The notes beneath the pieces were generated by a model that worked only from the letters and a program-made list of their open reading frames with translations, searched no databases and was not told the DNA's origin. This document shows positions 1 through 61,487 of a DNA stretch of 64,000 nucleotides, in pieces. The stretch is taken from assembly GCF_003790525.1 (NCBI RefSeq), contig NZ_CP033635.1; one strand, written 5' to 3'. Made by a program: the position numbers and the translations under genes. Position 1 is the stretch's first letter. Every line of letters begins with the position of its first letter. This stretch comes from Escherichia coli (lineage in GTDB: Bacteria > Pseudomonadota > Gammaproteobacteria > Enterobacterales > Enterobacteriaceae).

Positions 1-2101
1 CTCCGTAGAGGACGTAATTCAGACGCTGTTTGAAGCCATCGTATTGGTGGTTTGCGTGATGTATTTATTCCTGCAAAACCTGCGTGCCACACTGATTCCG
101 GCGTTAGCTGTCCCCGTCGTTTTGCTGGGCACATTCGGCGTTCTTGCGTTGTTTGGCTATTCGATTAATACCCTGACGTTGTTTGCAATGGTGCTGGCGA
201 TCGGCTTGCTGGTGGACGATGCCATTGTGGTGGTAGAGAACGTCGAACGCATTATGCGTGACGAAGGGTTGCCCGCGCGTGAAGCCACGGAAAAATCAAT
301 GGGCGAGATTTCTGGCGCACTGGTTGCCATTGCGCTGGTGTTGTCAGCCGTATTCCTGCCGATGGCCTTCTTTGGGGAATCTACGGGCGTAATTTATCGT
401 CAGTTCTCCATCACCATCATCTCCGCAATGCTGCTTTCCGTGGTGGTGGCATTGACCTTGACTCCCGCCCTGTGCGGTTCCGTCCTCCAGCATGTTCCGC
501 CACATAAAAAAGGCTTTTTCGGCGCATTTAACCGCTTTTACCGCCGTACTGAAGATAAATATCAGCGAGGCGTAATTTATGTCCTGCGCCGTGCAGCCCG
601 AACGATGGGGCTTTATGTCGTGCTGGGTGGTGGAATGGCCCTGATGATGTGGAAACTGCCCGGCAGTTTCTTACCCACTGAAGACCAGGGCGAAATCATG
701 GTGCAGTACACGCTGCCGGCCGGGGCGACCGCTGCCCGTACAGCAGAAGTGAATCGCCAGATTGTTGACTGGTTCCTGATTAACGAGAAAGCAAATACCG
801 ATGTCATCTTTACCGTTGATGGTTTCAGTTTTAGCGGCAGCGGACAGAACACCGGGATGGCGTTTGTTTCGTTGAAAAACTGGTCTCAACGTAAAGGGGC
901 AGAAAACACCGCCCAGGCTATCGCCCTACGGGCAACCAAAGAGCTGGGCACAATTCGTGATGCGACGGTATTTGCGATGACGCCGCCAGCCGTTGATGGG
1001 CTGGGGCAAAGCAATGGTTTTACGTTTGAATTGTTAGCTAACGGTGGAACCGATCGTGAAACACTGCTGCAAATGCGTAATCAGTTGATAGAAAAAGCGA
1101 ATCAAAGTCCGGAGTTACATTCTGTACGCGCCAATGATTTGCCACAAATGCCGCAATTGCAGGTAGATATTGATAGCAATAAAGCGGTGTCATTAGGGTT
1201 GAGTTTGAATGATGTCACCGACACCCTGTCCAGTGCGTGGGGCGGTACTTATGTGAATGACTTTATTGACCGTGGTCGTGTGAAAAAAGTCTACATTCAG
1301 GGCGACAGCGAATTTCGTTCCGCGCCGTCAGACTTAGGTAAATGGTTTGTGCGCGGTAGCGATAACGCTATGACACCATTCTCTGCTTTTGCGACCACCC
1401 GCTGGCTGTATGGACCGGAAAGACTGGTGCGCTACAACGGCTCGGCAGCCTATGAAATTCAGGGCGAAAACGCGACTGGCTTTAGTTCCGGCGATGCAAT
1501 GACAAAAATGGAGGAACTGGCAAACAGTCTTCCTGCGGGAACAACCTGGGCCTGGAGTGGTTTGTCATTGCAGGAGAAACTGGCCAGCGGTCAGGCATTA
1601 AGTCTGTATGCAGTTTCTATTCTGGTGGTTTTCCTCTGCCTTGCAGCACTGTACGAAAGCTGGTCAGTCCCGTTCTCGGTCATTCTGGTGATCCCTCTGG
1701 GGCTTCTTGGCGCGGCGCTGGCGGCCTGGATGCGTGATTTAAACAACGACGTTTACTTCCAGGTAGCGCTATTAACTACTATCGGCTTGTCATCGAAAAA
1801 CGCCATTCTGATTGTGGAATTTGCTGAAGCGGCGGTTGCAGAGGGCTATTCCTTGAGTCGTGCGGCATTACGCGCGGCGCAGACTCGTTTACGCCCAATC
1901 ATCATGACCTCGCTGGCGTTTATTGCGGGGGTAATGCCGCTGGCGATAGCAACTGGCGCAGGGGCGAACAGCCGCATCGCCATTGGTACGGGCATTATTG
2001 GCGGCACGCTGACCGCTACATTACTGGCCATTTTCTTCGTTCCTCTGTTTTTTGTACTGGTGAAACGTTTGTTTGCCGGTAAACCGCGCCGTCAGGAGTA
2101 A
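1..2101 (+). CDS. RND (HAE1-type) multidrug efflux permease, 5'-truncated by the window edge (C-terminal ~700 aa present)
   Basis: Open frame from nt 2 to TAA at 2099-2101; translation matches AcrB/MexB-like transporters by eye ([14 protein letters not shown] motif, hydrophobic C-terminal TM bundle). Frame runs off the left edge. Confidence 0.85.
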
Positions 2102-2104
2102 GTT

Positions 2105-3505
2105 ATGTTGCGTCGTTCTCTTATTTTTCTGGTGTTGTTGAGTGCGGGATGTGTCTCGCTCGATCCTCACTACAGTACGCCTGAATCCCCAATCCCGGCG
2201 ACCTTGCCGGGAGCACAGGGCCAGGGGAAGGCAATCAGCCATGACTGGCAGCAGGTGATTCACGATCCCCGATTGCAGCAGGTGATTCACGATCCCCGAT
2301 TGCAGCAGGTAGTAACCATTGCACTGAACAGTAACCGCGATGTGCAAAAAGCGATTGCTGATATTGACTCAGCACGGGCGCTCTATGGGCAAACTAATGC
2401 GTCGTTATTTCCGACGGTGAATGCGGCCTTAAGTTCGACTCGCAGTCGTTCGCTGGCGAATGGTACGGGAACAACTGCCGAGGCTGACGGCACGGTGTCC
2501 AGTTATACGTTAGATCTGTTTGGTCGTAATCAGAGTTTATCTCGGGCGGCGCGGGAAACCTGGCTTGCCAGTGAATTTACAGCCCAGAACACTCGTTTAA
2601 CGCTGATTGCTGAAATCAGCACCGCCTGGCTGACACTGGCGGCTGATAACAGCAACCTGGCCCTGGCAAAAGAAACGATGGCCAGTGCAGAAAACTCATT
2701 GAAAATTATCCAGCGCCAGCAACAGGTTGGCACGGCGGCAGCGACAGATGTCAGTGAGGCGATGAGTGTTTATCAGCAAGCGCGCGCCAGCGTTGCCAGC
2801 TATCAGACACAAGTGATGCAGGATAAAAATGCGCTGAACTTACTGGCAGGTACAACGCTTGCGGAAAATCTGCTACCGGGAACACTGGAAAGCCTGCCGG
2901 AACAAATGATAAGTCTGGTTCCTGCGGGAGTATCATCTGATGTTCTGCTGCGTCGCCCGGATATCCAGGAAGCGGAACATAATTTGAAGAGCGCCAATGC
3001 CGATATTGGCGCGGCACGGGCTAACTTTTTCCCGACGATTTCGCTGACTGCCAGTGCCGGTGTTGGCAGTGACGCGTTGTCGTCGTTGTTCAGCCACGGA
3101 ATGCAGATCTGGTCATTTGCGCCATCGGTCACATTACCGCTGTTTACTGGCGGAAGTAATCTGGCGCAGCTTCGTTACGCAGAAGCACAAAAGCGTGGAC
3201 TCATTGCCACCTATGAAAAAACCGTTCAGAGCGCATTTAAAGATGTCGCTAACGCACTGGCGCGGCGGACCACGCTTGAAGAGCAACTGGATGCACAGCG
3301 CCAGTATGTTAAAGCTGAACAACAAACGGTCGATGTTGGCTTGCGTCGCTATCAGGCGGGTGTTGGTGATTACCTGACCGTGTTGACGGCGCAGCGCAGC
3401 TTGTGGAGCGCACAGCAGGAGCTGCTGGCACTGCAACTGACTGATTTTACAAACCGAATCACGCTCTGGCAGTCGCTGGGCGGCGGCATGTCATCACTCA
3501 AGTAA
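2105..3505 (+). CDS. Outer-membrane efflux lipoprotein (OprM/NodT family)
   Basis: 466-aa ORF starting 4 nt after the RND stop, AGGAG upstream; lipoprotein signal with lipobox (LSAGC); OprM-like blocks (DPRLQQV..ALNSNRDV, LLRRPDI.EAEH.L..ANA.IGAARA.FFP, SLW.AQQ); contains 27-bp tandem duplication. Confidence 0.85.
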   Translation: MLRRSLIFLVLLSAGCVSLDPHYSTPESPIPATLPGAQGQGKAISHDWQQVIHDPRLQQVIHDPRLQQVVTIALNSNRDVQKAIADIDSARALYGQTNASLFPTVNAALSSTRSRSLANGTGTTAEADGTVSSYTLDLFGRNQSLSRAARETWLASEFTAQNTRLTLIAEISTAWLTLAADNSNLALAKETMASAENSLKIIQRQQQVGTAAATDVSEAMSVYQQARASVASYQTQVMQDKNALNLLAGTTLAENLLPGTLESLPEQMISLVPAGVSSDVLLRRPDIQEAEHNLKSANADIGAARANFFPTISLTASAGVGSDALSSLFSHGMQIWSFAPSVTLPLFTGGSNLAQLRYAEAQKRGLIATYEKTVQSAFKDVANALARRTTLEEQLDAQRQYVKAEQQTVDVGLRRYQAGVGDYLTVLTAQRSLWSAQQELLALQLTDFTNRITLWQSLGGGMSSLK

Positions 3506-3513
3506 GGAATAAT

Positions 3514-4677
3514 ATGGCTAGAGTCTCTCTTTCATGGGCATTGATTCTTGGTCTTTTAGCCGGTATCGGCCCGATGTGTACCGATCTTTATTTGCCGGCT
3601 TTGCCGGAGATGTCTGAGCAACTGGCGGCAACCACGACCATAACGCAATTAACCCTGACCGCATCACTGATTGGTCTTGGCGTCGGACAACTGTTATTTG
3701 GCCCTCTGAGCGACAAAATAGGGCGTAAACGTCCGTTAATCTTGTCGTTGCTATTGTTTATTGTTTCTTCCATTTTGTGCGCGACAACGAACAATATTTA
3801 CTGGCTGGTGGTCTGGCGTTTTATTCAAGGGATCGCGGGGGCGGGTGGTTCGGTGCTCTCTCGTTCTATTGCTCGTGACAAATATCAGGGAGTAACGTTG
3901 ACCCAGTTTTTTGCGCTGTTAATGACGGTGAATGGCCTGGCACCGGTGTTGTCGCCAGTGCTGGGCGGGTACATTGTTAGCACTTTTGACTGGCGCACTT
4001 TATTCTGGGTAATGGCTGAAATTAGCACCGTACTGTTGCTGGGCTGCCTGTTATTTATTAATGAGACCTTGCCAGAAAATAAAAGGGGCTCATCATTGCT
4101 ATTAACCGGACGAAGCGTGGTGCAGAACCGCCGTTTTATGCGCTTTTGCCTGATTCAAAGTTTTATGCTGGCCGGTTTGTTTGCATATATCGGCTCTTCG
4201 TCGTTCGTGTTGCAGAAGGAATTTGGCTTTAGTCCAATGCAATTTAGCCTGGTGTTTGGCCTTAACGGCATCGGACTTATCATTGCTTCATGGATCTTCT
4301 CGCGCCTGGCGCGACGGATTAACGCGATGACATTGTTGCGAGGTGGCCTGATAGCGGCAATTTTGTGTGCATTGCTCACGGTCTTATGCGCATGGACACA
4401 ATTGCCCATTCCGGCACTGGTGGCATTATTTTTCACCATCGCATTTTGTAGCGGCATCGGCACTGTTGGCGGGGCAGAGGCTATGAGTGCAGTAGGGACG
4501 CAGGAATCTGGAACGGCGTCTGCGTTGATGGGGATGAGCATGTTTGTCTTCGGCGGTATAGCCGCGCCATTGTCGGGAATTGGCGGAGAAACACTGTTAA
4601 AAATGAGTCTGGCAATTACGGTGTGTTATACGCTGGCATTGCTGGTTGCTCTCACCAGAATCGACAATCAAAAGTAA
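3514..4677 (+). CDS. MFS drug-efflux transporter (Bcr/CflA-like)
   Basis: 387-aa ORF, AAGGA RBS, about 12 hydrophobic segments, MFS motif region GPLSDKIGRKRPL; co-directional with the upstream efflux genes. Confidence 0.75.
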   Translation: MARVSLSWALILGLLAGIGPMCTDLYLPALPEMSEQLAATTTITQLTLTASLIGLGVGQLLFGPLSDKIGRKRPLILSLLLFIVSSILCATTNNIYWLVVWRFIQGIAGAGGSVLSRSIARDKYQGVTLTQFFALLMTVNGLAPVLSPVLGGYIVSTFDWRTLFWVMAEISTVLLLGCLLFINETLPENKRGSSLLLTGRSVVQNRRFMRFCLIQSFMLAGLFAYIGSSSFVLQKEFGFSPMQFSLVFGLNGIGLIIASWIFSRLARRINAMTLLRGGLIAAILCALLTVLCAWTQLPIPALVALFFTIAFCSGIGTVGGAEAMSAVGTQESGTASALMGMSMFVFGGIAAPLSGIGGETLLKMSLAITVCYTLALLVALTRIDNQK

Positions 4678-4683
4678 TGAACA

Positions 4684-4720
4684 CCTCATCCTGAGGGGGG
4701 CCCTGTCAGGATGAGGTGCA
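4684..4720. terminator. Bidirectional hairpin between convergent MFS gene and sapF
   Basis: Perfect 13-bp inverted repeat CACCTCATCCTGA/TCAGGATGAGGTG with GC-rich loop, in the 48-bp gap between convergent stops. Confidence 0.5.
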
Positions 4721-4725
4721 AAACA

Positions 4726-5532
4726 CTAACGGTCCTTACGCCACGCATCCGCCGTCAATGCCTCGCCAAAATGACCGGCGATCAGCCGTTTGGTGAGTTC
4801 ATGCAGCGGCGATGCCAGCACATCTGCGGTGCTGCCTCGCTCGACAACCTCGCCCTGATGCATCACCAGCACCTGGTCGCTAATGTGCTTCATCATTCCG
4901 ATATGCTGGGTAACATAAATATACGAAATGCCCTGTTTTTCCTGTAACTCCAGCATCAGGTTAATCAACTGCGAACGCATCGACATATCCAGTGAGGCGA
5001 GGGCTTCATCGGCAATAATGACTTTTGGGCGCAATATCAGCGCGCGCGCCAGACCCAGACGCTGTTTTTGCCCGGGTGCCAACATATGCGGATAGTAACT
5101 GACGTGATCCGGTAGCAGCCCAACCATACGCATCGTTTCAATAATCTGTTTGCGACGCTGTTCCGGTTCCAGATCGGTGTTCAGACGCAGTGGAAAATCC
5201 AGAATTTGCGAGATACGTTGACGGGGATTCAACGAGGTCGAAGGATCCTGAAAAATCATGCGAATACGCTGACTGCGGAAGGAATAATCGCCAAAATGCA
5301 GCGGATGATCGTCAATCAATAACTCGCCGCTGGTAGGTTCTATCATTCCCGCCAGCATTTTTGCCAGCGTGGATTTACCCGAACCATTCTCGCCAATAAT
5401 CGCCAGTGTCTGGCCTTCACGTAGCGTAAAGCTCAAGGGTTTTACCGCTTCTACGGTCTGACGACGAAACCAACCGGTCCGGTAGCGGAACGTTTTACTT
5501 AAATTACGCACTTCAAGCAGCGTTTCGATCAT
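4726..5532 (-). CDS. sapF: ABC transporter ATP-binding protein SapF
   Basis: 268-aa ORF, Walker A GENGSGKST, ABC signature; recognised as E. coli SapF; last gene of sapABCDF order. Confidence 0.92.
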   Translation of the reverse strand: MIETLLEVRNLSKTFRYRTGWFRRQTVEAVKPLSFTLREGQTLAIIGENGSGKSTLAKMLAGMIEPTSGELLIDDHPLHFGDYSFRSQRIRMIFQDPSTSLNPRQRISQILDFPLRLNTDLEPEQRRKQIIETMRMVGLLPDHVSYYPHMLAPGQKQRLGLARALILRPKVIIADEALASLDMSMRSQLINLMLELQEKQGISYIYVTQHIGMMKHISDQVLVMHQGEVVERGSTADVLASPLHELTKRLIAGHFGEALTADAWRKDR

Positions 5533-5533
5533 C

Positions 5534-6526
5534 TCATTCTTTCTCCATGTTCAGCGGGAAATGACAGGCATAGAGATGATTTTTCGCCCCCGTCAAACGT
5601 GGCGTCACAATGCATTCTCGTTGTGCATACGGGCAACGCGGCCCCAGACGACACCCAATCGGTAACTGTTCCAGCAGCGGGATAGCGCCGGGCAGCGTAT
5701 TGAGGCGACTTTTATGCGGCATCGCGCTGCCGAAGTCTGGTATCGCGCGGATCAGCGCCTGGGTATAAGGATGATGTGGCATTGTCACCAACTCCTTACT
5801 TGGCGCGGTTTCCACCGTTTGACCGCAGTAAAGCACGTTAATTTTATCCGCCCATTGGCTAAGCATTTGTAAGTCATGGCTGATAAGCAAAATAGTGGTA
5901 TTACTGTTTTGGTTGAGACGCGTCAGCAGGCGAAAGATTTGCGCCTGGGTTGTTGGCTCCATTGAGTTTGTCGGTTCGTCAGCAATCAGCAGACGCGGTT
6001 GATTCGCCAGTGCAATGGCTATCATCACTTTCTGACATTCACCTTCGGTCAACTCATAGGGAAAACTGCGCATCGCATCTTTGTGATCTTTAATCCCCAC
6101 GCGGTGCAGCAGTTCAATGGCACGGCGTTTGCGCCAGCCAAAACGCTGCCACCAACGGCCTTTATAGGTCCAGGCTGGGATGTTTTGCATCAACTGGCGA
6201 CCCACACGTTCTGAAGGGTCAAGACACGACTGCGGTTCCTGGAAAATCATCGACACGTTGTGACCAACCAGCTTGCGCCGTTCGCGTGCGGAGAGACGCA
6301 GCAAATCGATATCATCAAAACGCATACGGTCAGCAGTAACACGCCAGTTATCTTTATTCACCCCACAAATTGCTTTCGCAATCAAACTTTTGCCGGAACC
6401 TGATTCGCCAACAAGACCGCGGATTTCACCTTCGGTTAAGGTCATACTTACGCGGTCGACGGCTTTAACCCACTCATCACCGGTTTTAAATTCAATGGTC
6501 AGGTTACGAATATCGAGTAATGGCAT
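5534..6526 (-). CDS. sapD: ABC transporter ATP-binding protein SapD
   Basis: 330-aa ORF, Walker [10 protein letters not shown]-terminal oligopeptide-ABC extension; recognised as SapD. Confidence 0.92.
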
Positions 6527-7416
6527 TATTCCACCCCCGCAATAATTGCACGACGGACACCGTCGCCAAGGAGGTTAACCAACAGCACGCTAATCATAAT
6601 TGCCGCACCTGGCAGCATGACAGTCCACGGGGCGACATAAATCAGTTCCAGCGCATCACCGAGCATCGCTCCCCATTCAGGCGAGGGGAGTTGTGCGCCG
6701 AGATCGAGAAAGCCCAGCGCGGCGATATCGAGAATTGCCATCGACAGTGCGCGGGTGATCTCGGTGACCAGCCCGGCGGTGATGTTTGGCATCACAGCAA
6801 ACCAGAGAATATTCAGCGTTGATGCGCCATCCAGACGGGCGGCGATAACGTACTCTTTTTCCAGTTCGTCATGCACCATGCTGTAAATCGAACGTACCAT
6901 ACGAGGCAGCAGCGCCAGCCAGACGGCAAACATGGCGTGCGACAAACTCGGTCCGGCAAACGCTACAACGATAATTGCCAGCAGTAGGGAAGGGATCGCC
7001 AGTAAGGTATCCAGAATATGGTTAAGCACCGCTGATCGGAGGCCGTGGGTCGCCCCGGCGAAGGTGCCCAGTACCAGGCCACAGATCGTCGCGGCAAGCG
7101 TCACCACAAATGCGCCGCCTACGGTTGGCGCAGCTCCGCTCAGTAAACGGCTTAAAACATCGCGTCCGAGGTCGTCAGTCCCAAGGAAGAAAGAAACTTC
7201 GCCATAGCGCGACCATGACGGCGGCAATAATTGATAACCGAGAAATTGCTGATCGATGCCGTAAGGCGCAAACCAGCCGCCAAAAATACACAGTACAGCC
7301 AGCCCCGCGCAGCCGTACAGGCCGACCATCGCAGAGGCGTCACTATAAAATTTGCGCCAGGCGGTACGCAGCGTGCCCGGCGGGCGCTTTTCGCTGTATA
7401 CGCTATCGTAAGGCAT
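6526..7416 (-). CDS. sapC: ABC transporter permease SapC
   Basis: 296-aa polytopic membrane ORF; start overlaps sapB stop; recognised as SapC. Confidence 0.9.
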
Positions 7417-8368
7417 ACCATTCCTTATGTTTCAGAGGGTTAGCCATGGCACCCAAAATATCAGAAATCACGTTAACAATAATGACCAGTGAGCCACACA
7501 CCATCACTCCGGCGGAAATGGCTGCGTAATCCTGCTGGCGGATAGCGTTAATTAACCAGCGCCCTAAACCCGGCCAGCTAAAGACCATTTCGGTGATCAT
7601 CGCCAGCGTCAGCATGGTAGAAAACTGTAAGCCCAGGCGAGGAATAACCGGAGGTAACGCGTTATGCAGAACGTGGCGACGCAAAATAGTAAAGCGCGAC
7701 AAACCGCGGGTCGCCGCTGCTTTAACATAGTTCTGGTCATACACTTCGATAGTGCTGATACGCATTAGTCGGATCACTTCAGTTGTTGGCGCAACCGACA
7801 GGGTGATCACGGGTAATATCATATGGCGAATTGCGCTCATGACCATTTCATCCCGCCACGGTGAGTCCGAAAGCCAGGCATCAATCAACGCAAAACCGGT
7901 AATCGGTTTCACTTCGTAGAGCAAATCGAAACGCCCAGAAACGGGCAACCAACCTAGCGTGAGTGAACAAAACAGCGTCAGCAGAAGCGCCAGCCAGAAC
8001 ACCGGGATTGAAAAGCCCAGTAAGGCGATGGCGTTGATCAAGTTATCCTGCCACTTATGGCGCGTAATCCCGGCAATCATTCCCATGGGGATGCCAACAA
8101 TCAGCGCAAAACCAAAGGCGAGGATGCACAGCTCCATCGTCGCCGGGAAGACCTCTTTTAACTGTTCGGCAATCGGTTGACCGTTAATGCTGGAAACACC
8201 AAAATCCCAGTGGATCAGGCCGTTAAACCAGAACACCCAGGCATTCCACAGTGACGCGCCTTGTAACGGCGCATGTGGGGTGAAATAGCTCAAGCTGAAG
8301 CCAACGAAGGTCAGCAGGAACAAGGTGACAATCAATAACAAAATACGGCGTAAGGTGAAGATAATCAT
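7403..8368 (-). CDS. sapB: ABC transporter permease SapB
   Basis: 321-aa membrane ORF, DppB/OppB-like; 4-nt overlap with sapA stop. Confidence 0.9.
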
Positions 8369-10008
8369 GGCTTTTTCACCTCATCCTGTTTCTCGCGATA
8401 CACCCCAGCAAAGGAGGCGTTACCAAACGGGCTAAGTACCAGACCTTTGATATCGTACCGATAGGCCTGCAAACGCAATGACGACGCCAGCGGCAGAATA
8501 GGTAATTCCTGCGCCAGAATACTTTGCGCTTCGTCATAGGCTTCAATACGCGCCGCCAGCTGCTGCGAAGAGAGCGCCTTACGCAATACGCTGTCGAATT
8601 TCGGATCGCACCAGTGGGCGAGGTTGGTCTGTGAATGAATTGCCGCGCAGCTCAGTAACGGACGGAAGAAACTGTCCGGGTCGTTACTGTCCGTCGCCCA
8701 ACCGGATAACGTCAGATCATGGCTCATATCCATCAACCGCGCCTCCTGAAAACGACCTTCTACCGGCACAATCACCACTTTTACGCCAACCTGTGCCATA
8801 TCCGCCTGAATCAGTTCGGCGGTTTTCAGTGGACTGGGGTTCCACGCCTGCGAACGTGTGGGCACCCACAGTTTCAGCGTTAAGTTTTCCAGCCCCAACG
8901 CCTTCAACTGTTCGCGCGATTTTGCCGGATTGTATTCAGTAATTTTAGCCTCGTTGTCATAGGCCCACGAGGCGCGCGGTAAAATAGAGGCCGCCGTTTC
9001 AGCCGTACCATAATAGATGGATTGCATCAGGCGCTGGTTATTAATCGCCAGTGCCAGTGCATGGCGGACCGCCGGATTATTTAGCGGCGGTTTAGCGGTG
9101 TTAAACGCCAGATAGGCGACGTTCATCCCCGGGCGCAGCGTTAAACGCAAGCGCGGGTCGTCACGCAAAATGGATAGCTGACTGGCGGCAGGCCAGGCCA
9201 GAACGTCGCATTCCCCGGTCAGGAGTTTCGACAGACGTCCGGTGCCGCCGGAGCCTAAATCCACCACCACCTGCGGCATTAACGGCTTACCACGCCAGAA
9301 GTCATCATGACGTTGTAAGCGAATATATTGCCCGGCGCGGTATTCCGACAACTGATACGGACCGGTGCCGACCGGTTGACGGTCGAGTTGCTCCTGGCGA
9401 TCTTCTTTCTCTAACTTCCCTGCATATTCTGCCGACATGACCGAAGCATAATGGGTCGCGAGGTGCCACAAAAAAGAAGCATCCGGCTGAGCCAGACGGA
9501 ACTCAACGGTATGATTATCCAGTTTACGGACGCTTTTCACGTTATCGGCAAATTGCAGGCTGTCGAAATAGGGGAAGTTGCTGCCATTAACGTTATGCCA
9601 CGGGTTGTTGCGGTCAAAAATTCGCTGGAAGGTAAACACCACATCGTCGGCATTCATTTTACGAGTGGGAGTAAACCAGTCGGTTTTTTGAAACGGAACA
9701 TCGCGACGCAGGTGGAAGCGATAGGTCGCGCCGTTGTCGAGTACTTCCCAGCTTTCGGCAAGTTCCGGCATCAGGCGATAGGTATAGGGATCGACATCCA
9801 GCAGTCGATCATAAAACTGGGCGGCAAGGGTATCGACAATTAACCCACTGCTCGCTTTGGATGGGTTAAAGGTGTTGACTTGCCCGCTGACGCAATAGAC
9901 AAAACCGCTGTCGCGGATATCAGCATGCGGGGGGGATTCAGGCGCGGCGATTGCCTGACCACTCACAAGTCCAGCAATCACCAAAAGAGACGATAATACC
10001 TGGCGCAT
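8365..10008 (-). CDS. sapA: Periplasmic substrate-binding protein SapA
   Basis: 547-aa ORF with signal peptide ([13 protein letters not shown]), family-5 solute-binding fold; first gene of sap operon. Confidence 0.9.
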
Positions 10009-10112
10009 AATATTAAGGGATTTTATGTAAAGAGGCTATCTTACTAATATTTAATGACATTTGCCATTACCGTTTGTGTTCAGGGGTCGTAATGAGGGCC
10101 GTGTGGTTGGTC

Positions 10113-10143
10113 GTTGAACAGGTGGCGTCGCCATCTGTTCAAC
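10113..10143. other. 15-bp-arm hairpin in ymjA-sapA intergenic region
   Basis: GTTGAACAGGTGGCG / CGCCATCTGTTCAAC, one mismatch, 1-nt loop. Confidence 0.5.
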
Positions 10144-10257
10144 ATTCGTACCCGTGATTTCTCTATAACTATAACTCACAGAACAACTTAGCGAGGAGCA
10201 GAGCGGTACGATCGTGAGAAACCCATTGAGGCACACTGCAGTGCGTGTCATTGTTAG

Positions 10258-10285
10258 CCGGATGCGGCGTGAACGCTTTATCCGG
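10258..10285. repeat. REP-like palindromic element
   Basis: CCGGATGCGGCGTGAACGCTTTATCCGG resembles the E. coli REP consensus. Confidence 0.55.
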
Positions 10286-10320
10286 ACAACGATACTGACC
10301 GATCGTCTGCAATGAAATAA

Positions 10321-10566
10321 TTACTCATTACCCCATTGATTCAAAAACTCTGCGATCTCATCAATGCGTACGGGATTAATCCCCGCTTCAGCAGCCATTT
10401 CATGTTGGGCTTCTTCGCTGATTTCTTCATTGTTCATCAAACGGGTGAGCAGTAACTGGAAGTAGAGGGCCAGCGGTGTGCGTTCAGCGTCGGCGACAGG
10501 CTCTGCGCATTCGGTCGCGTACTCATCGGCAATATCGAAATATTTTAGCGGGATATCGTGGTTCAT
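10321..10566 (-). CDS. ymjA: Small acidic protein YmjA
   Basis: 81-aa ORF between sapA and puuP as in E. coli; recognised as YmjA. Confidence 0.75.
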
Positions 10567-10651
10567 TATTTGCCCCTGGGGTTAATGCGCTAAGCATAAG
10601 GGCGGATGATAGCACTCGTGATCCGGGTCATACATCTTTTTATAGTTAATG

Positions 10652-10690
10652 GCGCGGCGCATTACCCTCAGGCAGGATAATGCGCCGCGC
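10652..10690 (-). terminator. GC-rich hairpin 3' of puuP (terminator or REP-like)
   Basis: 13-bp arms GCGCGGCGCATTA / TAATGCGCCGCGC immediately after the puuP stop; A/T-rich tail but no clean U-run. Confidence 0.4.
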
Positions 10691-10699
10691 ATCCGACAA

Positions 10700-12085
10700 T
10701 TACGTTTCGCTCACCGGCGTTCTGTCACCATCATACAACGGCACTTTGCGATAGCGGCGGATCAGATACCACAAATATGCGCCGCCTAATGAAGCCCATA
10801 CCAGACCGAGTGTCAGTGACGTTGACTCGAGGTTAACCCACAGCACACCCACCGTCAGCGCGCCAACCAGCGGCATCAGCAAATAGTGGAAGTGATCCTT
10901 CCAGCTTTTATTCATTCCTTTGCGCCGCCAGAAATGATTAAACACCGACAGATTCACGAAGGTAAACGCCACCAGAGCACCGAAGTTAATCAATGCTGTC
11001 GCGGTGACTAAATCAAAGAACAGCGCCGACAGCGCAACAATCCCGACCATAATGACGTTCAACGCTGGCGTGCGCCATTTCGGGTGCACATAGCCAAACA
11101 CGCGCTCCGGAAACACATTGTCACGCCCCATCACATACAGCAGACGCGACACGCTGGCGTGCGACGCCAGGCCAGACGCTAACGTGTTCACAAACGTGGT
11201 ACAGAGGAAAATCGACTGGAAGAGCTTGCCGCCGACGTACAGCGCAATTTCAGGCAGTGCGGCGTCCGGGTCTTTAAAGCGGCTGATATCAGGAAAGAAC
11301 AGCTGCATAAAGAACGACGCAGCGATAAAGATAACGCCACCGTAGACCGCCGTCAGGAAGATGGCTTTCGGGATCACGCGTGCGGCGTCCGGCGTCTCTT
11401 CCGAAAGCGTGGTCACCGCATCGAAACCGAGGAAGGAGAAACAGACAATCGTCGCCCCGGTAATAATCGGGATCAGGTGCGCGTTCTCGCTGATAAACGG
11501 CTGAAGTGACCAGACGGTGCCAACGCCTTCTCCTTTATGCAGTCCCTGAACCACCAGGAAGATAAACACCACCATGATGGAGATTTGCACCAACACAAAC
11601 AGGGTATTGAAGTTAGCAACCAGGTTGACGCTCTTCAGATTCGCGGCGGTTAAAATGGCGACGAAGGTTACTACCCACACCCACGGCGGCACTTCCGGGA
11701 AGAGGGCGGAGAGATAGATTTTCGCCAACAAGACGTTGATCATCGGCAAAAAGAGATAATCCAGCAGCGATGACCAGCCGACCATAAATCCGACGTGCGG
11801 GTTAATCGACTTTTGCGCGTAGGTATAGGCCGAACCGGCTTCCGGAAACTGGCGAACCAGTTTGCCGTAGCTGATAGCGGTAAACAGCACGCCCGCCAGC
11901 GCCAGCAAATAGGACGCCGGAACGTGACCGTCGCTAATGCCGGAGACAATACCAAAAGTATCAAATACGGTCATCGGCGTGAGATAGGCCAGACCCATCA
12001 TCACCACCTGCCACAATTTCAGTGATTTTCGCAGACGGGTTTTGCCAGATTGCGCAGCAATAGTCAGTGGTGAATTAATAGCCAT
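10700..12085 (-). CDS. puuP: Putrescine importer PuuP (APC family)
   Basis: Polytopic membrane ORF; start set at MAINSPL (461 aa) with GGAGG upstream; recognised as PuuP. Confidence 0.88.
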
Positions 12086-12387
12086 AGTTGCTGCCTCCCC
12101 TGCGTAATAAGGTTTGCGGTCGTGTCGACCTGAAATCAAACCTGTTTAGCAAGGGAAGCAAAGGGGGCGGAGTCCAGTCAGTCGCAGGAGGGGCGCATAC
12201 GCAGCCTCCCTCGCCATGCGGGGATTTAATCATCGGCATCATCTCATTTCCTCGTCACAGTCTTAATCGTTAACGGAAGCCCGTTGCCGCCTGCGCTCCA
12301 TAACGCGACATCCGGGAAATGTCTGGATTACCAGCAAATGTCAGGCCTGGCTCCGCTCAGGCCGATGAAACAACCCCGCAAGGGGTA

Positions 12388-13806
12388 TTACGCGTTTTTC
12401 AACATCCACTCAATTTCTGTTTCTGTGATGAGGCGCTCAAACTGCAACAGCTCATCATTTTTACAGGCGTGATAGACATGGCAGAAGCGTTCGCCTAAAT
12501 AGCGGCGCAGGTGATCATTCTCGATAAACTCACCCAGGGCATCGCTCTGGCGAATCGGGAAGGGTAAGCCTTCCTGTTCCAGCCCGTTACCTTCGACTTC
12601 TTCCTGTAATGGCAGTTCGTTATCAAGGCCATGCAAAATACCGGCAAAAATCGCCGCCATCACCAGATACGGGTTGGCATCGGCACCCGCCACGCGATAT
12701 TCCACGCGGTGATTATGGCGATCGCCGCAGGGAATACGCAGGGCGACGGTGCGGTTGTTATGGCCCCACGACGCCTGCGTCGGTACATACATACCTGGCT
12801 GGAAGCGGCGATACGAGTTCACGTTTGGTGCCAGCAACGCCATTGATGACGGCATCAGGTCAATCATCCCGGCAAGCATCTTTTTCAGCAGCGGCGAATC
12901 TTCGCCTTCCGCGTCAGAAAGCACGTTCTCGCCACGGTTATTTTGCATACTGATATGGATATGCATCCCGCTGCCCGCGTGCTCTTCATACGGCTTCGCC
13001 ATAAAAGTGGCGTGCATCTTATGCTTTTCTGCCATCAGACGCACCAGGCGTTTTAGTGCCAGCGCATCATCGCAAGCTTCCAGCACGTTATCGGTATGGT
13101 AAAGATTGATTTCAAACTGACCCGGCGAGGCCTCAGCGACCGCGCCATCTGCCGGAATCAGCTGTAACTGCGCCAGCTCATCAATATCATTGAGCACGTC
13201 GGCGAAGTGGTTGAGGTTATCAACGGAGTAAACCTGGCTTTGTGTATTGCGGTCATCGGTGCCGGGCGCGCAGGGCGGTTGCAGATACCCTTCAGCGTCG
13301 CGCTGGCGATCCAGTAAATAGAACTCCAGCTCTACCGCTACGACCGGGAACAATCCGCGCTGGCGCAGCTGCTGCCACAGGCGGTTAAGAACGTTCCGCG
13401 GCTCAACGTCAAAGGGAGCGCCATCTTCATCGACCATGGTCAGGAGCATCTGACCGATAAACTCTGGATCGGCGGCAGAAGGGGTTAAGGAACCGAGAAC
13501 AGGAACACAGGTACGATCCGGCTCGCCCATTTCCTGACCCAGGCCCGCTTCTTCTACTACGTTGCCCAGAATATCCATTGCAAACACCGAGGCCGGGAAA
13601 TAACACCCTTTCTCGAGCTTCTTCAGGCTTGAAACAGGAATACGTTTTCCACGGAAGCAACCATTCAAATCGGTAAGTAAAACATCAACATATTGCGTAT
13701 TCGGGTAGCGCTCCAGGTAGCGTTTCACTTCCTGCGTAAAGGCGCTACCCCGCCTCTCTTCTGACTGCTGAACAAAGTTCTCTACTTCAACGATATTGGT
13801 TTCCAT
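12388..13806 (-). CDS. puuA: Gamma-glutamylputrescine synthetase PuuA
   Basis: Glutamine-synthetase-like ORF; start set at METNIVEV (472 aa). Confidence 0.9.
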   Translation of the reverse strand: METNIVEVENFVQQSEERRGSAFTQEVKRYLERYPNTQYVDVLLTDLNGCFRGKRIPVSSLKKLEKGCYFPASVFAMDILGNVVEEAGLGQEMGEPDRTCVPVLGSLTPSAADPEFIGQMLLTMVDEDGAPFDVEPRNVLNRLWQQLRQRGLFPVVAVELEFYLLDRQRDAEGYLQPPCAPGTDDRNTQSQVYSVDNLNHFADVLNDIDELAQLQLIPADGAVAEASPGQFEINLYHTDNVLEACDDALALKRLVRLMAEKHKMHATFMAKPYEEHAGSGMHIHISMQNNRGENVLSDAEGEDSPLLKKMLAGMIDLMPSSMALLAPNVNSYRRFQPGMYVPTQASWGHNNRTVALRIPCGDRHNHRVEYRVAGADANPYLVMAAIFAGILHGLDNELPLQEEVEGNGLEQEGLPFPIRQSDALGEFIENDHLRRYLGERFCHVYHACKNDELLQFERLITETEIEWMLKNA

Positions 13807-43431: not shown

Positions 43432-43557
43432 TATTTTCATTGATGTGCAGATATTAGAATTGTCGTAATGTTATATACATGGCGTATTTTATTCTTACTG
43501 GTTCTACACATGTTAATCGCATCTGATTGATCAGTTCACCTTAATAAGTTTAATAAA

Positions 43558-43582
43558 TCGTACTGCACATAGTACAGTACGA
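43558..43582 (-). terminator. Hairpin 3' of ymjC-like gene (probable operon terminator)
   Basis: 8-bp arms TCGTACTG/CAGTACGA with 9-nt loop, about 20 bp after the stop, followed on the minus strand by an A/U-rich tract. Confidence 0.4.
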
Positions 43583-43601
43583 TGGTAGCTATATAATTGA
43601 T

Positions 43602-44240
43602 TTACATGAAGAAGGGCTTATCACCATCAGTCCCGGGTTGATTGATGCCTATATTCTCACCAATGTGTTTCTCAGGTTTATCGATGATATCTGTGATTAA
43701 TGCTGCGACACTCTTACGTGATACGATCGTACCTTTGAATGGTTCATTGCGTGAGGTAAGCTCATAATCAATAATATCTTCATCAGTCAGCCAGGCAGGG
43801 CGAAGAATTGTATATTCCAGTCCAGAAGCCTCAATTGCATCCGCAGCCCTGCGGAATGGTTTTAGGGGTTCACCAATAACTGCATTATTCCATTCGCCAA
43901 ATTTTCCTGGAACTTCATCATAAATACCGAGGGAAAGAACAAAGATCAGACGTTTAACATCACAGGCTTTCATCGCAGCGATCACTGAATTTGCCTGAAT
44001 ATCTAAATCTTCCCCCGTAAGGTTGGCATACACAACATCCTGTCCCTGCATGGCCTGCTTCAGTGCTGCATGATTCAGTACATCCCCCATAATAATCTTG
44101 CTATTAGTTGGATAGGGTTTGTGGATTTTTGCTGGCTGACGGGCAAATAAAGTTTGTTTAATGGTTTGTTTATCTGCCAGTTGATTAATCACATGGCGGG
44201 CTATCTGACCGCCAGCACCAAGAATCAGTATATTTTTCAT
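43602..44240 (-). CDS. NAD(P)-binding NmrA/SDR-like protein (ymjC-like), intact
   Basis: 212-aa ORF with Rossmann motif ILGAGGQIA. Confidence 0.75.
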   Translation of the reverse strand: MKNILILGAGGQIARHVINQLADKQTIKQTLFARQPAKIHKPYPTNSKIIMGDVLNHAALKQAMQGQDVVYANLTGEDLDIQANSVIAAMKACDVKRLIFVLSLGIYDEVPGKFGEWNNAVIGEPLKPFRRAADAIEASGLEYTILRPAWLTDEDIIDYELTSRNEPFKGTIVSRKSVAALITDIIDKPEKHIGENIGINQPGTDGDKPFFM

Positions 44241-57828: not shown

Positions 57829-57836
57829 AACTGCAT

Positions 57837-57931
57837 AAAAAAAATAGAGTCTGTCGACATCCGCCAGACTCTACAGTACACACAGCAGTGCATCCGCGTC
57901 TTAAATCCGGCATGGTCTCCTCTGCGCCGGT
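57837..57931 (-). ncRNA. mcaS: Small RNA McaS (IsrA)
   Basis: Minus-strand sequence matches McaS as I recall it (5' ACCGGCGCAGAGGAGAC...); terminal hairpin AGAGTCTGGCGGATGTCGACAGACTCT plus U8; sits between abgR and smrA. Confidence 0.8.
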
Positions 57932-61272: not shown

Positions 61273-61309
61273 ATAAACTCTCTACCCATTCAGGGCAATA
61301 TCTCCCTTG

Positions 61310-61419
61310 CAGGTGAATGCAACGTCAAGCGATGGGCGTTGCGCTCCATATTGTCTTACTTCCTTTTTTGAATTACTGCATAGCACAATTGATTCGTACG
61401 ACGCCGACTTTGATGAGTC
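61310..61419 (+). ncRNA. fnrS: Small RNA FnrS
   Basis: Matches FnrS as I recall it (GCAGGUGAAUGCAACGUCAAGCGAUGGGCG...); terminal hairpin GCCGACTTTGATGAGTCGGC plus U8; between zntB and dbpA. Confidence 0.85.
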
Positions 61420-61487
61420 GGCTTTTTTTTGCCTGTTATATATCAGCGTCTACCCTTTAAGAGTCCACCCAATGACCGGAGGGAAAT

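Follow-up and report, generated by a model that had tools for sequence, protein, structure and literature searches.

The left end of the window, by which we mean the whole 64,000-nucleotide stretch of Escherichia coli DNA analysed here, almost certainly carries the distal part of the chromosomal eefRABCD operon, with positions 1-4677 being best explained overall as eefB'-eefC-eefD. This locus, which encodes a seventh RND pump together with an MFS pump, is already known: it has been characterised in E. coli by Pugh et al. (Microb Genom 2026, PMC12817139) and by Shen et al. (Virulence 2025, PMC12482432). Because eefRABCD has already been published, efflux genes beside sapF are an ordinary finding.

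The ORF listing and its translations place three plus-strand open reading frames with intact frames at the left end of the window (Table 1), separated by gaps of 3 bp (eefB/eefC) and 8 bp (eefC/eefD), a spacing that is consistent with co-transcription. The eefD stop at 4677 lies 48 bp from the stop of the convergent gene at 4726, whose product scores 588.9 bits against the SapF equivalog model (NCBIfam cut-off 452); these coordinates agree with the first-pass annotation, which had described co-directional, tightly spaced efflux genes ending 48 bp short of the sapF stop. The gap between eefD and sapF holds a stem-loop with a predicted folding energy of -29.7 kcal/mol (z = -6.1), which none of 200 shuffled sequences equalled in stability, and its right end marks the limit of the eef-specific DNA on that side. 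This hairpin is probably a bidirectional transcript-end signal, although its role as a terminator can only be inferred since the stem-loop lacks a T-run. A scan for promoters and terminators within the locus gave matches no more numerous than in shuffled sequence and is therefore uninformative, although the lack of an excess of internal matches agrees with co-transcription.

Table 1. Features at the left end of the window (positions in the window).
Feature	Position	Strand	Evidence
eefB 3' part, residues 337-1035 of 1035	1..2101	+	open frame 2-2101, TIGR00915
EefB Gly462->Glu, private A versus G elsewhere	378	+	comparison with strain 2D and 41-mer
eefC, NodT/OprM-type outer-membrane factor lipoprotein	2105..3505	+	TIGR01845; OprM
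27-bp tandem duplication within eefC	2248..2310	+	TRF
eefD, Bcr/CflA-family (DHA1) MFS exporter, final operon gene	3514..4677	+	TIGR00710
13-bp perfect inverted repeat (stem-loop), eefD-sapF gap	4682..4718	.	fold and repeat search
right flank: K-12 homology from 4719, sapF 4726-5532	4719..5532	-	blastn; SapF equivalog

The identity of the locus was established by comparison with genomes in which it is complete. Strain 2D matches the window at 99.99% identity across a shared 13.8 kb, and its locus reads fabI, TetR, adaptor, RND, OMF, MFS, sapF, with the five eef genes co-directional; the window holds the last three, and the first two are known from near-identical genomes. The adaptor, which had been expected beyond the left edge if present at all, and the TetR-type regulator for which the same flank had been proposed, are thus both found in a 99.99% identical genome, from which the presence of EefA and EefR in the window strain itself is inferred. 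A second match, at 99.83% DNA identity over 16 kb, is SMS-3-5, in which eefRABCD was first reported for E. coli according to Pugh et al. (PMC12817139); the EefR, EefA, EefB and EefD accessions of strain 2D are the same as those in SMS-3-5. The locus shares with the published E. coli eefRABCD its fabI-sapF position, its five-gene order and its proteins, and differs allelically only, through a 9-aa duplication in EefC and the substitution G462E in EefB.

The eefB frame is truncated at the left boundary of the window, and the remaining 699 codons encode an HAE1-type RND permease without its N-terminal third. This part scores 1036 bits against TIGR00915 (efflux RND permease; NCBIfam cut-off 940) over profile positions 336-1039 of 1050. 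The solved structures nearest to EefB are AcrB-type transporters and MexB: AcrB gives a full-length match of about 1285 bits with a common architecture, and MexB, among the best solved matches with 1278 bits, shares the proton-relay residues. These are D408, D409, K935 and T972 in EefB (D407, D408, K939 and T976 in MexB numbering), all of which are present inside the window part and agree with the positions given by Pugh et al. 2026 (PMC12817139).

The eefC product (466 aa) scores 362.6 bits against TIGR01845, the NodT-type outer membrane subunit model (NCBIfam cut-off 210), and among solved structures its closest relative is OprM (E 3e-100). Its N-terminus, MLRRSLIFLVLLSAGC, as read from the translation, is a predicted lipoprotein signal, with the signal peptide ending between LSAG and C, and an AGGAG stands 6 nt upstream of the ATG. 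The 387-aa eefD product, annotated as WP_000135019.1 and common to SMS-3-5, scores 281.7 bits against TIGR00710 (Bcr/CflA MFS; NCBIfam cut-off 200.9), with residues 7-378 aligned to profile positions 5-380 of 385, and is thus a full-length family member. It falls below the cut-off of every named equivalog (TcaB 317 versus 475, Bcr 228 versus 303); its identity to E. coli Bcr is about 30% (Shen et al. 2025, PMC12482432), and its nearest solved relatives are EmrD (1e-26) and MdfA. EefD differs from all of these exporters in being co-transcribed with an RND pump.

From these assignments, EefB is a proton-driven RND permease which, together with the periplasmic adaptor EefA and its own outer-membrane channel EefC, would assemble into a tripartite pump like AcrAB-TolC or MexAB-OprM, with both architecture and stoichiometry presumed. 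EefD is a separate inner-membrane MFS exporter of the 12-helix type, co-transcribed with the pump, and the TetR-family repressor EefR, encoded by the first gene of the operon, holds expression low. Published experiments bear on several of these steps. Shen et al. (PMC12482432) documented co-transcription of the five genes by RT-PCR, a 27- to 83-fold de-repression upon eefR deletion by qRT-PCR, and MICs raised 4- to 32-fold when plasmid-borne eefABC or eefD was overexpressed in an acrB-null DH5alpha. Export of ethidium by eef was shown by Pugh et al. (PMC12817139), in whose hands antibiotic MICs stayed the same whether eefABC or eefD was added or removed, so that the two studies conflict on MICs.

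The possibility that the pump is a heavy-metal exporter of the Cus/Czc type, acting on metals in place of organic compounds, arises from EefC, which reaches 318 bits against the Cu/Ag outer-membrane factor model and matches the CusC and SilC structures well. That score, however, lies under the model cut-off of 598, and EefB obtains only 225 bits as CusA/CzcA (cut-off 701) against its HAE1 score. Susceptibility to Co, Ni, Zn and Fe was unchanged in the published tests, and EefB is without the methionine relay (Pugh et al., PMC12817139). Family scores and metal tests together largely refute this role, which we regard as extremely improbable.

Two variants distinguish the window from its closest relatives. 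The first is base 378, the sole difference from strain 2D across the 13.8 kb and hence the single base by which eefB departs from the WP_000492814.1 gene of that strain; a 41-mer centred on the A at this position occurs in 0 of 5426 complete E. coli genomes. The affected motif, PMAFFG[G>E]STG, has glycine in each of the 8 further Eef loci read, that of Pseudocitrobacter among them, and the equivalent residue is also glycine in the solved MexB and AcrB-type structures. Because glutamate replaces a glycine found without exception in the relatives examined, this copy of EefB may be impaired; alternatively, base 378 may be a sequencing error.

The second variant is an in-frame duplication in eefC (27-bp period, 2.3 copies, 100% matches by TRF) that repeats QQVIHDPRL within the conserved N-terminal W..(V/F).HDP.L motif region; in the alignment, this 9-aa insertion is the sole difference from EefC of SMS-3-5. 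An 83-base query proved unsuitable for counting it, as single-copy genomes scored as 100% covered through two overlapping pieces spanning 56 bases. The duplication was accordingly counted with a 41-mer specific for its junction, which occurs in 22 of the 5426 genomes; their sources are humans, chickens, dogs, a pangolin and river water. As genomes from such varied hosts and from river water carry it, the duplication persists in a successful lineage.

Taken together, the two variants could mean that the pump of this strain is altered or non-functional, in an operon that is decaying or changed in function. The unmatched substitution at an invariant glycine and the placement of the duplication in a conserved region speak for such a change, but all three reading frames are intact, the duplication keeps the frame and is common to 22 genomes of varied hosts, and a lone private base may be a sequencing error; we therefore consider it unlikely. 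Also unlikely is a broader proposal, in which the duplication and G462E would represent lineage-specific remodelling or inactivation of the pump, EefD would pass substrates through the inner membrane to EefABC in a two-step relay, and the natural substrate would possibly be host-related.

Several known pumps help to place this operon. MexAB-OprM of Pseudomonas aeruginosa has its channel gene inside the operon, as in eef, but belongs to another genus and, unlike eef, lacks a linked MFS gene; it is regulated by MexR, a MarR-type protein whose gene is divergently transcribed. The substrate range of Eef is apparently narrower than that of MexAB-OprM (Pugh et al., PMC12817139). AcrAB-TolC of E. coli K-12 uses TolC, whereas the Eef pump comes with a NodT/OprM-type lipoprotein channel of its own, and EefC scores 56 bits against the TolC equivalog model (NCBIfam cut-off 495). 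Activity of EefAB without EefC has been reported (Shen et al., PMC12482432), which suggests that TolC can also be used. With AcrB present, loss of Eef gave no antibiotic phenotype (Pugh et al., PMC12817139).

The E. coli genes take their name from EefABC of Klebsiella (Enterobacter) aerogenes and K. pneumoniae, where the RND pump is likewise tripartite and brings its own outer-membrane factor; protein identities to this system are 78.1% for EefA, 87.3% for EefB and 74.9% for EefC (Shen et al., PMC12482432). The architecture of the operon differs, however, and in some genera it does not include eefD; the Klebsiella operon is silenced by H-NS, and its overexpression alters antibiotic susceptibility. 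True orthology with the Enterobacter loci, at 73% DNA identity, has been doubted (Pugh et al., PMC12817139). In our searches, an RND gene on an Enterobacter cloacae plasmid matched with 77% DNA identity over eefB only.

Across complete E. coli genomes, the module stands beside sapF in at least 2042 of 5426 (about 38%), at 97-100% DNA identity, a count that required carriage of the whole 4.8 kb adjoining sapF and is a lower bound. Published work assigns the carriers to phylogroups B2, D, E, F and G. In K-12 the order is fabI-ycjD-sapF with no eef genes, as the first-pass annotation had stated, and the rest of the window follows the K-12 order, barring small indels and a K-12 IS5. Of the query, only the sapF tail matches K-12, with homology restarting at 4719. 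Blastn comparison of K-12 with strain 2D placed the breakpoints at L001 positions 5803/5804 and 13718/13719, the latter corresponding to 4718/4719 of the window; a 658-bp segment with ycjD occupies the place of eef in K-12 and its relatives. Eef remnants were not detected in the K-12 fabI-sapF spacer when this 658-bp filler was compared with the 7915-bp segment (blastn, word size 7, E <=1e-3), and visual inspection shows only about 15 bases (TGTCAGRATGAGGTG) in common between the K-12 and eef versions at the right junction. The arrangement in K-12 therefore does not look like a mere internal deletion of eef, although a published alignment cartoon may hint at one.

The patchy distribution raises the question of age. 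A genomic island acquired recently by this lineage through horizontal transfer, carried into the fabI-sapF interval by a plasmid or another mobile element, would explain why K-12 and numerous other E. coli lack eef. It would also fit the presence of Pseudomonas MexB and OprM among the closest solved relatives, a hint of lateral origin according to Pugh et al. (PMC12817139), a related five-gene cluster at another chromosomal site in Pseudocitrobacter, and the plasmid copies reported by Shen et al. (PMC12482432). Against this, composition shows no shift, since GC (0.50-0.54) and GC3 (0.54-0.56) of eefB, eefC and eefD equal those of the sap genes, and no integrase, transposase, tRNA or flanking direct or inverted repeat was annotated or found around the 7915-bp segment. 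Furthermore, the fabI-eefRABCD-sapF synteny is kept in E. albertii, E. whittamii and Escherichia sp. MOD1-EC7003 at 93-98% protein identity, and the locus therefore predates E. coli. Plasmid carriage was likewise rejected for the records examined, which include CP054253.1, NZ_CP141085.1 and NZ_CP134663.1: eef is flanked there by rnb-yciW-fabI and sapFDCBA-ymjA, the records are typed as non-mobilizable, and one measures 4.9 Mb. Given these chromosomal neighbours, typing and size, they look like mislabelled pieces of chromosome.

We consequently hold recent acquisition to be very unlikely. Synteny in sister species, native composition and the absence of a mobility signature instead point to an old locus that was kept by some lineages and lost in others. 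The description of the locus as accessory in the first-pass annotation thus stands insofar as its presence varies within E. coli, and not in the sense of a recent acquisition.

To the published picture, the present analysis adds an independent frequency of the locus in 5426 complete genomes, indications of a chromosomal context for reported 'plasmid' copies, and two strain-level variants, the eefC duplication and EefB G462E, which are new but minor. As already published, K-12 gives an incomplete picture of the efflux systems of pathogenic E. coli lineages, and mutation of eefR leads to de-repression of the operon, with possible multidrug resistance once AcrB is compromised.

Three co-directional efflux genes occupy the left edge of the window, with gaps of 3 bp between the first and second genes and 8 bp between the second and third, and because sapF lies on the opposite strand, 48 bp separate the convergent stop codons of the third gene and sapF. 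These open reading frame coordinates agree in every detail with the first-pass annotation, which had described three tightly spaced efflux genes ending 48 bp from the sapF stop. Families were assigned to these four genes with NCBIfam models that have curated cut-offs, all four of which are exceeded.

Features at the left edge of the window, with family assignments and scores
Feature	Position	Strand	Description	Evidence
Gene 1 (eefB, 3' part)	2-2101	+	open frame of 699 codons, truncated at the window's left edge; efflux RND permease	ORF list, translation; TIGR00915, profile positions 336-1039 of 1050, 1036 bits (cut-off 940)
EefB Gly462 to Glu	378		A for G, within PMAFFGGSTG	sole base separating the window from strain 2D
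Gene 2 (eefC)	2105-3505	+	466 aa; NodT-type outer-membrane subunit	ORF list, translation; TIGR01845, 362.6 bits (cut-off 210)
Tandem duplication in eefC	2248-2310		perfect, 27 bp; in-frame repeat of QQVIHDPRL	+9 residues relative to SMS-3-5
Gene 3 (eefD)	3514-4677	+	387 aa; Bcr/CflA MFS exporter	ORF list, translation; TIGR00710, 281.7 bits (cut-off 200.9)
Hairpin	4682-4718		13-bp perfect inverted repeat (stem-loop) between convergent eefD and sapF	fold -29.7 kcal/mol, z = -6.1
sapF	4726-5532	-	SapF equivalog	ORF list, translation; 588.9 bits (cut-off 452)

This locus has been published before under the name eefRABCD and is characterised in part; it encodes a TetR regulator, a periplasmic adaptor, an RND permease, an outer-membrane factor and an MFS exporter. 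Pugh et al. (Microb Genom 2026, PMC12817139; preprint 2024), who studied more than 20,000 assemblies, attribute its first report to strain SMS-3-5 and describe ycjD in its place in phylogroups A, B1 and C. The SMS-3-5 locus is 99.83% identical over 16 kb to that of strain 2D, the near-identical reference genome for our window; the two strains share protein accessions for EefR, EefA, EefB and EefD, and their EefC proteins differ solely by a nine-residue insertion. This identity, together with the EefB proton-relay residues D408, D409, K935 and T972, found at the positions listed in PMC12817139, establishes the content of the window as eefB (residues 337-1035), eefC and eefD. The first-pass interpretation is supported overall, for a locus previously published.

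To describe the occurrence of the module, window positions 1-4800 were compared by megablast with 5426 complete E. coli genomes. At least 2042 carry the entire stretch at a single chromosomal place with 97-100% identity, and all listed records are annotated with an RND permease, an outer-membrane subunit, an MFS transporter and sapF. In K-12 and similar strains the match is confined to the last 65-74 bases of the query, the tail of sapF, so that K-12 does not carry the three genes. The best match, strain 2D, differs by one base over 13.8 kb, and its annotated order is rnb, yciW, fabI, TetR/AcrR regulator, periplasmic adaptor, RND permease, outer-membrane subunit, MFS transporter and sapFDCBA; the adaptor and TetR-type regulator that had been anticipated beyond the left edge are thus present there in this strain. 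The K-12 order is fabI-ycjD-sapF, as the first-pass annotation had stated. In local blastn, homology with K-12 is lost at window 4718/4719 on one side and 123 bp upstream of fabI on the other, and the fabI-sapF filler measures 7915 bp in eef-positive strains (5804-13718 of the strain 2D locus, L001) versus 658 bp, with ycjD, in K-12 (6335-6992 of its locus, L002). Because blastn detected no similarity between the two fillers, the ycjD and eef segments are alternative cassettes; neither looks like a deletion product of the other with remnants left, although Fig 3 of PMC12817139 gives that impression.

A recent genomic island would be one explanation for such a cassette, and several observations argue against it. 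The eef genes have a GC content of 0.50-0.54 and a third-position GC content of 0.54-0.56, the same as the sap genes; the strain 2D annotation shows no mobility gene close to the eef segment, and no direct or inverted repeats were found flanking it. A single scan of species-representative genomes with EefD returned five loci. In four of them (E. albertii, E. whittamii, Escherichia sp. MOD1-EC7003 and a divergent E. coli) the order fabI-EefR-A-B-C-D-SapF-SapD is identical and Eef protein identity is 93-98%. The fifth, in a Pseudocitrobacter metagenome-assembled genome (L010, 3527-11155), has the same eefR-A-B-C-D order with 68, 82, 88, 75 and 66% identity but occupies another chromosomal site, where genes for a TetR regulator and for an MFS pump of the DHA2 type lie upstream and murQ-murP downstream; the linkage of RND and MFS genes is therefore not specific to Escherichia. 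The evidence supports a long-standing presence of eef between fabI and sapF within the genus Escherichia, with the ycjD segment having replaced it in some lineages, and Pugh et al. agree with this reading.

The 3' arm of the hairpin between eefD and sapF stops right at the point where homology with K-12 starts again; this arm (TGTCAGAATGAGGTG) is the only part of the hairpin that K-12 shares. Since the hairpin has no T-run and a consensus terminator scan performed overall no better than chance, its role as a terminator is one that we infer; it probably ends both convergent transcripts.

From sapF to ttcA the window is collinear with K-12 apart from a few indels and an IS5, in line with the K-12 order noted for this part by the first-pass annotation. 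The puuR-puuC spacer (about 15415) is 122 bases longer in K-12, and the K-12 IS5 between ynaI and ynaJ is not in the window (about 49420). The window carries about 660 bases at 43441-44102 that K-12 lacks. With them a 212-aa gene (43602-44240, - strand) is complete and intact, whereas K-12 retains only part of it, under the annotation of an 'NAD-dependent dehydratase' pseudogene. The small RNAs McaS/IsrA (57836-57931, - strand) and FnrS (61309-61426, + strand) lie as expected from K-12, and the window ends inside ttcA, just short of the K-12 Rac prophage site.

Among solved structures, AcrB-type transporters and MexB match the whole of EefB (about 1280-1290 bits), and EmrD and MdfA match EefD. 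For EefC the top match is OprM (E 3e-100), and the protein starts with a signal of the lipoprotein type, MLRRSLIFLVLLSAGC. By family resemblance, a proton gradient-driven EefB trimer would collect substrates in the periplasm and outer leaflet and hand them on via the EefA adaptor to the EefC channel, and EefD would move substrates out of the cytoplasm through the inner membrane. Shen et al. (PMC12482432) reported that all five genes are co-transcribed and that EefR represses the operon, its deletion raising eefA-D mRNA 27- to 83-fold. In an acrB-null host, plasmid-borne eefABC raised the MICs of sanguinarine, chloramphenicol, erythromycin, tetracycline, clindamycin and fusidic acid 8- to 32-fold, and eefD alone raised MICs 2- to 4-fold; EefAB without EefC was nearly as effective, suggesting that TolC can also be used (PMC12482432). 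In contrast, Pugh et al. observed ethidium export with unchanged antibiotic and metal MICs, and consider the natural function unknown (PMC12817139). On drug transport the two papers are thus in conflict.

Two alleles distinguish the window. The eefC duplication, counted through a 41-mer existing solely at its junction, occurs in 22 of the 5426 complete genomes and marks a lineage; the sources of these 22 are humans, chickens, dogs, a pangolin and river water. Every one of the eight further Eef loci read retains Gly462 of EefB, as do the solved MexB and AcrB-type structures; the A allele encoding Glu is absent from all 5426 genomes, and the change may reflect either an error in sequencing or a mutation that is private to this strain and possibly damaging.

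Shen et al. also reported the operon on plasmids in a few strains (PMC12482432). Three E. coli records with eefRABCD were found in the plasmid collection, NZ_CP141085.1 (L011), CP054253.1 (L012) and NZ_CP134663.1 (H100), all typed as non-mobilizable. The first two (252 kb and 385 kb), the records examined for flanks, retain the chromosomal rnb-yciW-fabI and sapFDCBA-ymjA, and the third is 4.9 Mb in size. These records look like mislabelled pieces of chromosome, and given their context, plasmid spread is unsupported among the records examined. Beyond the two minor alleles, this doubt is all that our analysis adds to the published account, and it weakens the suggestion that eef spreads on plasmids.
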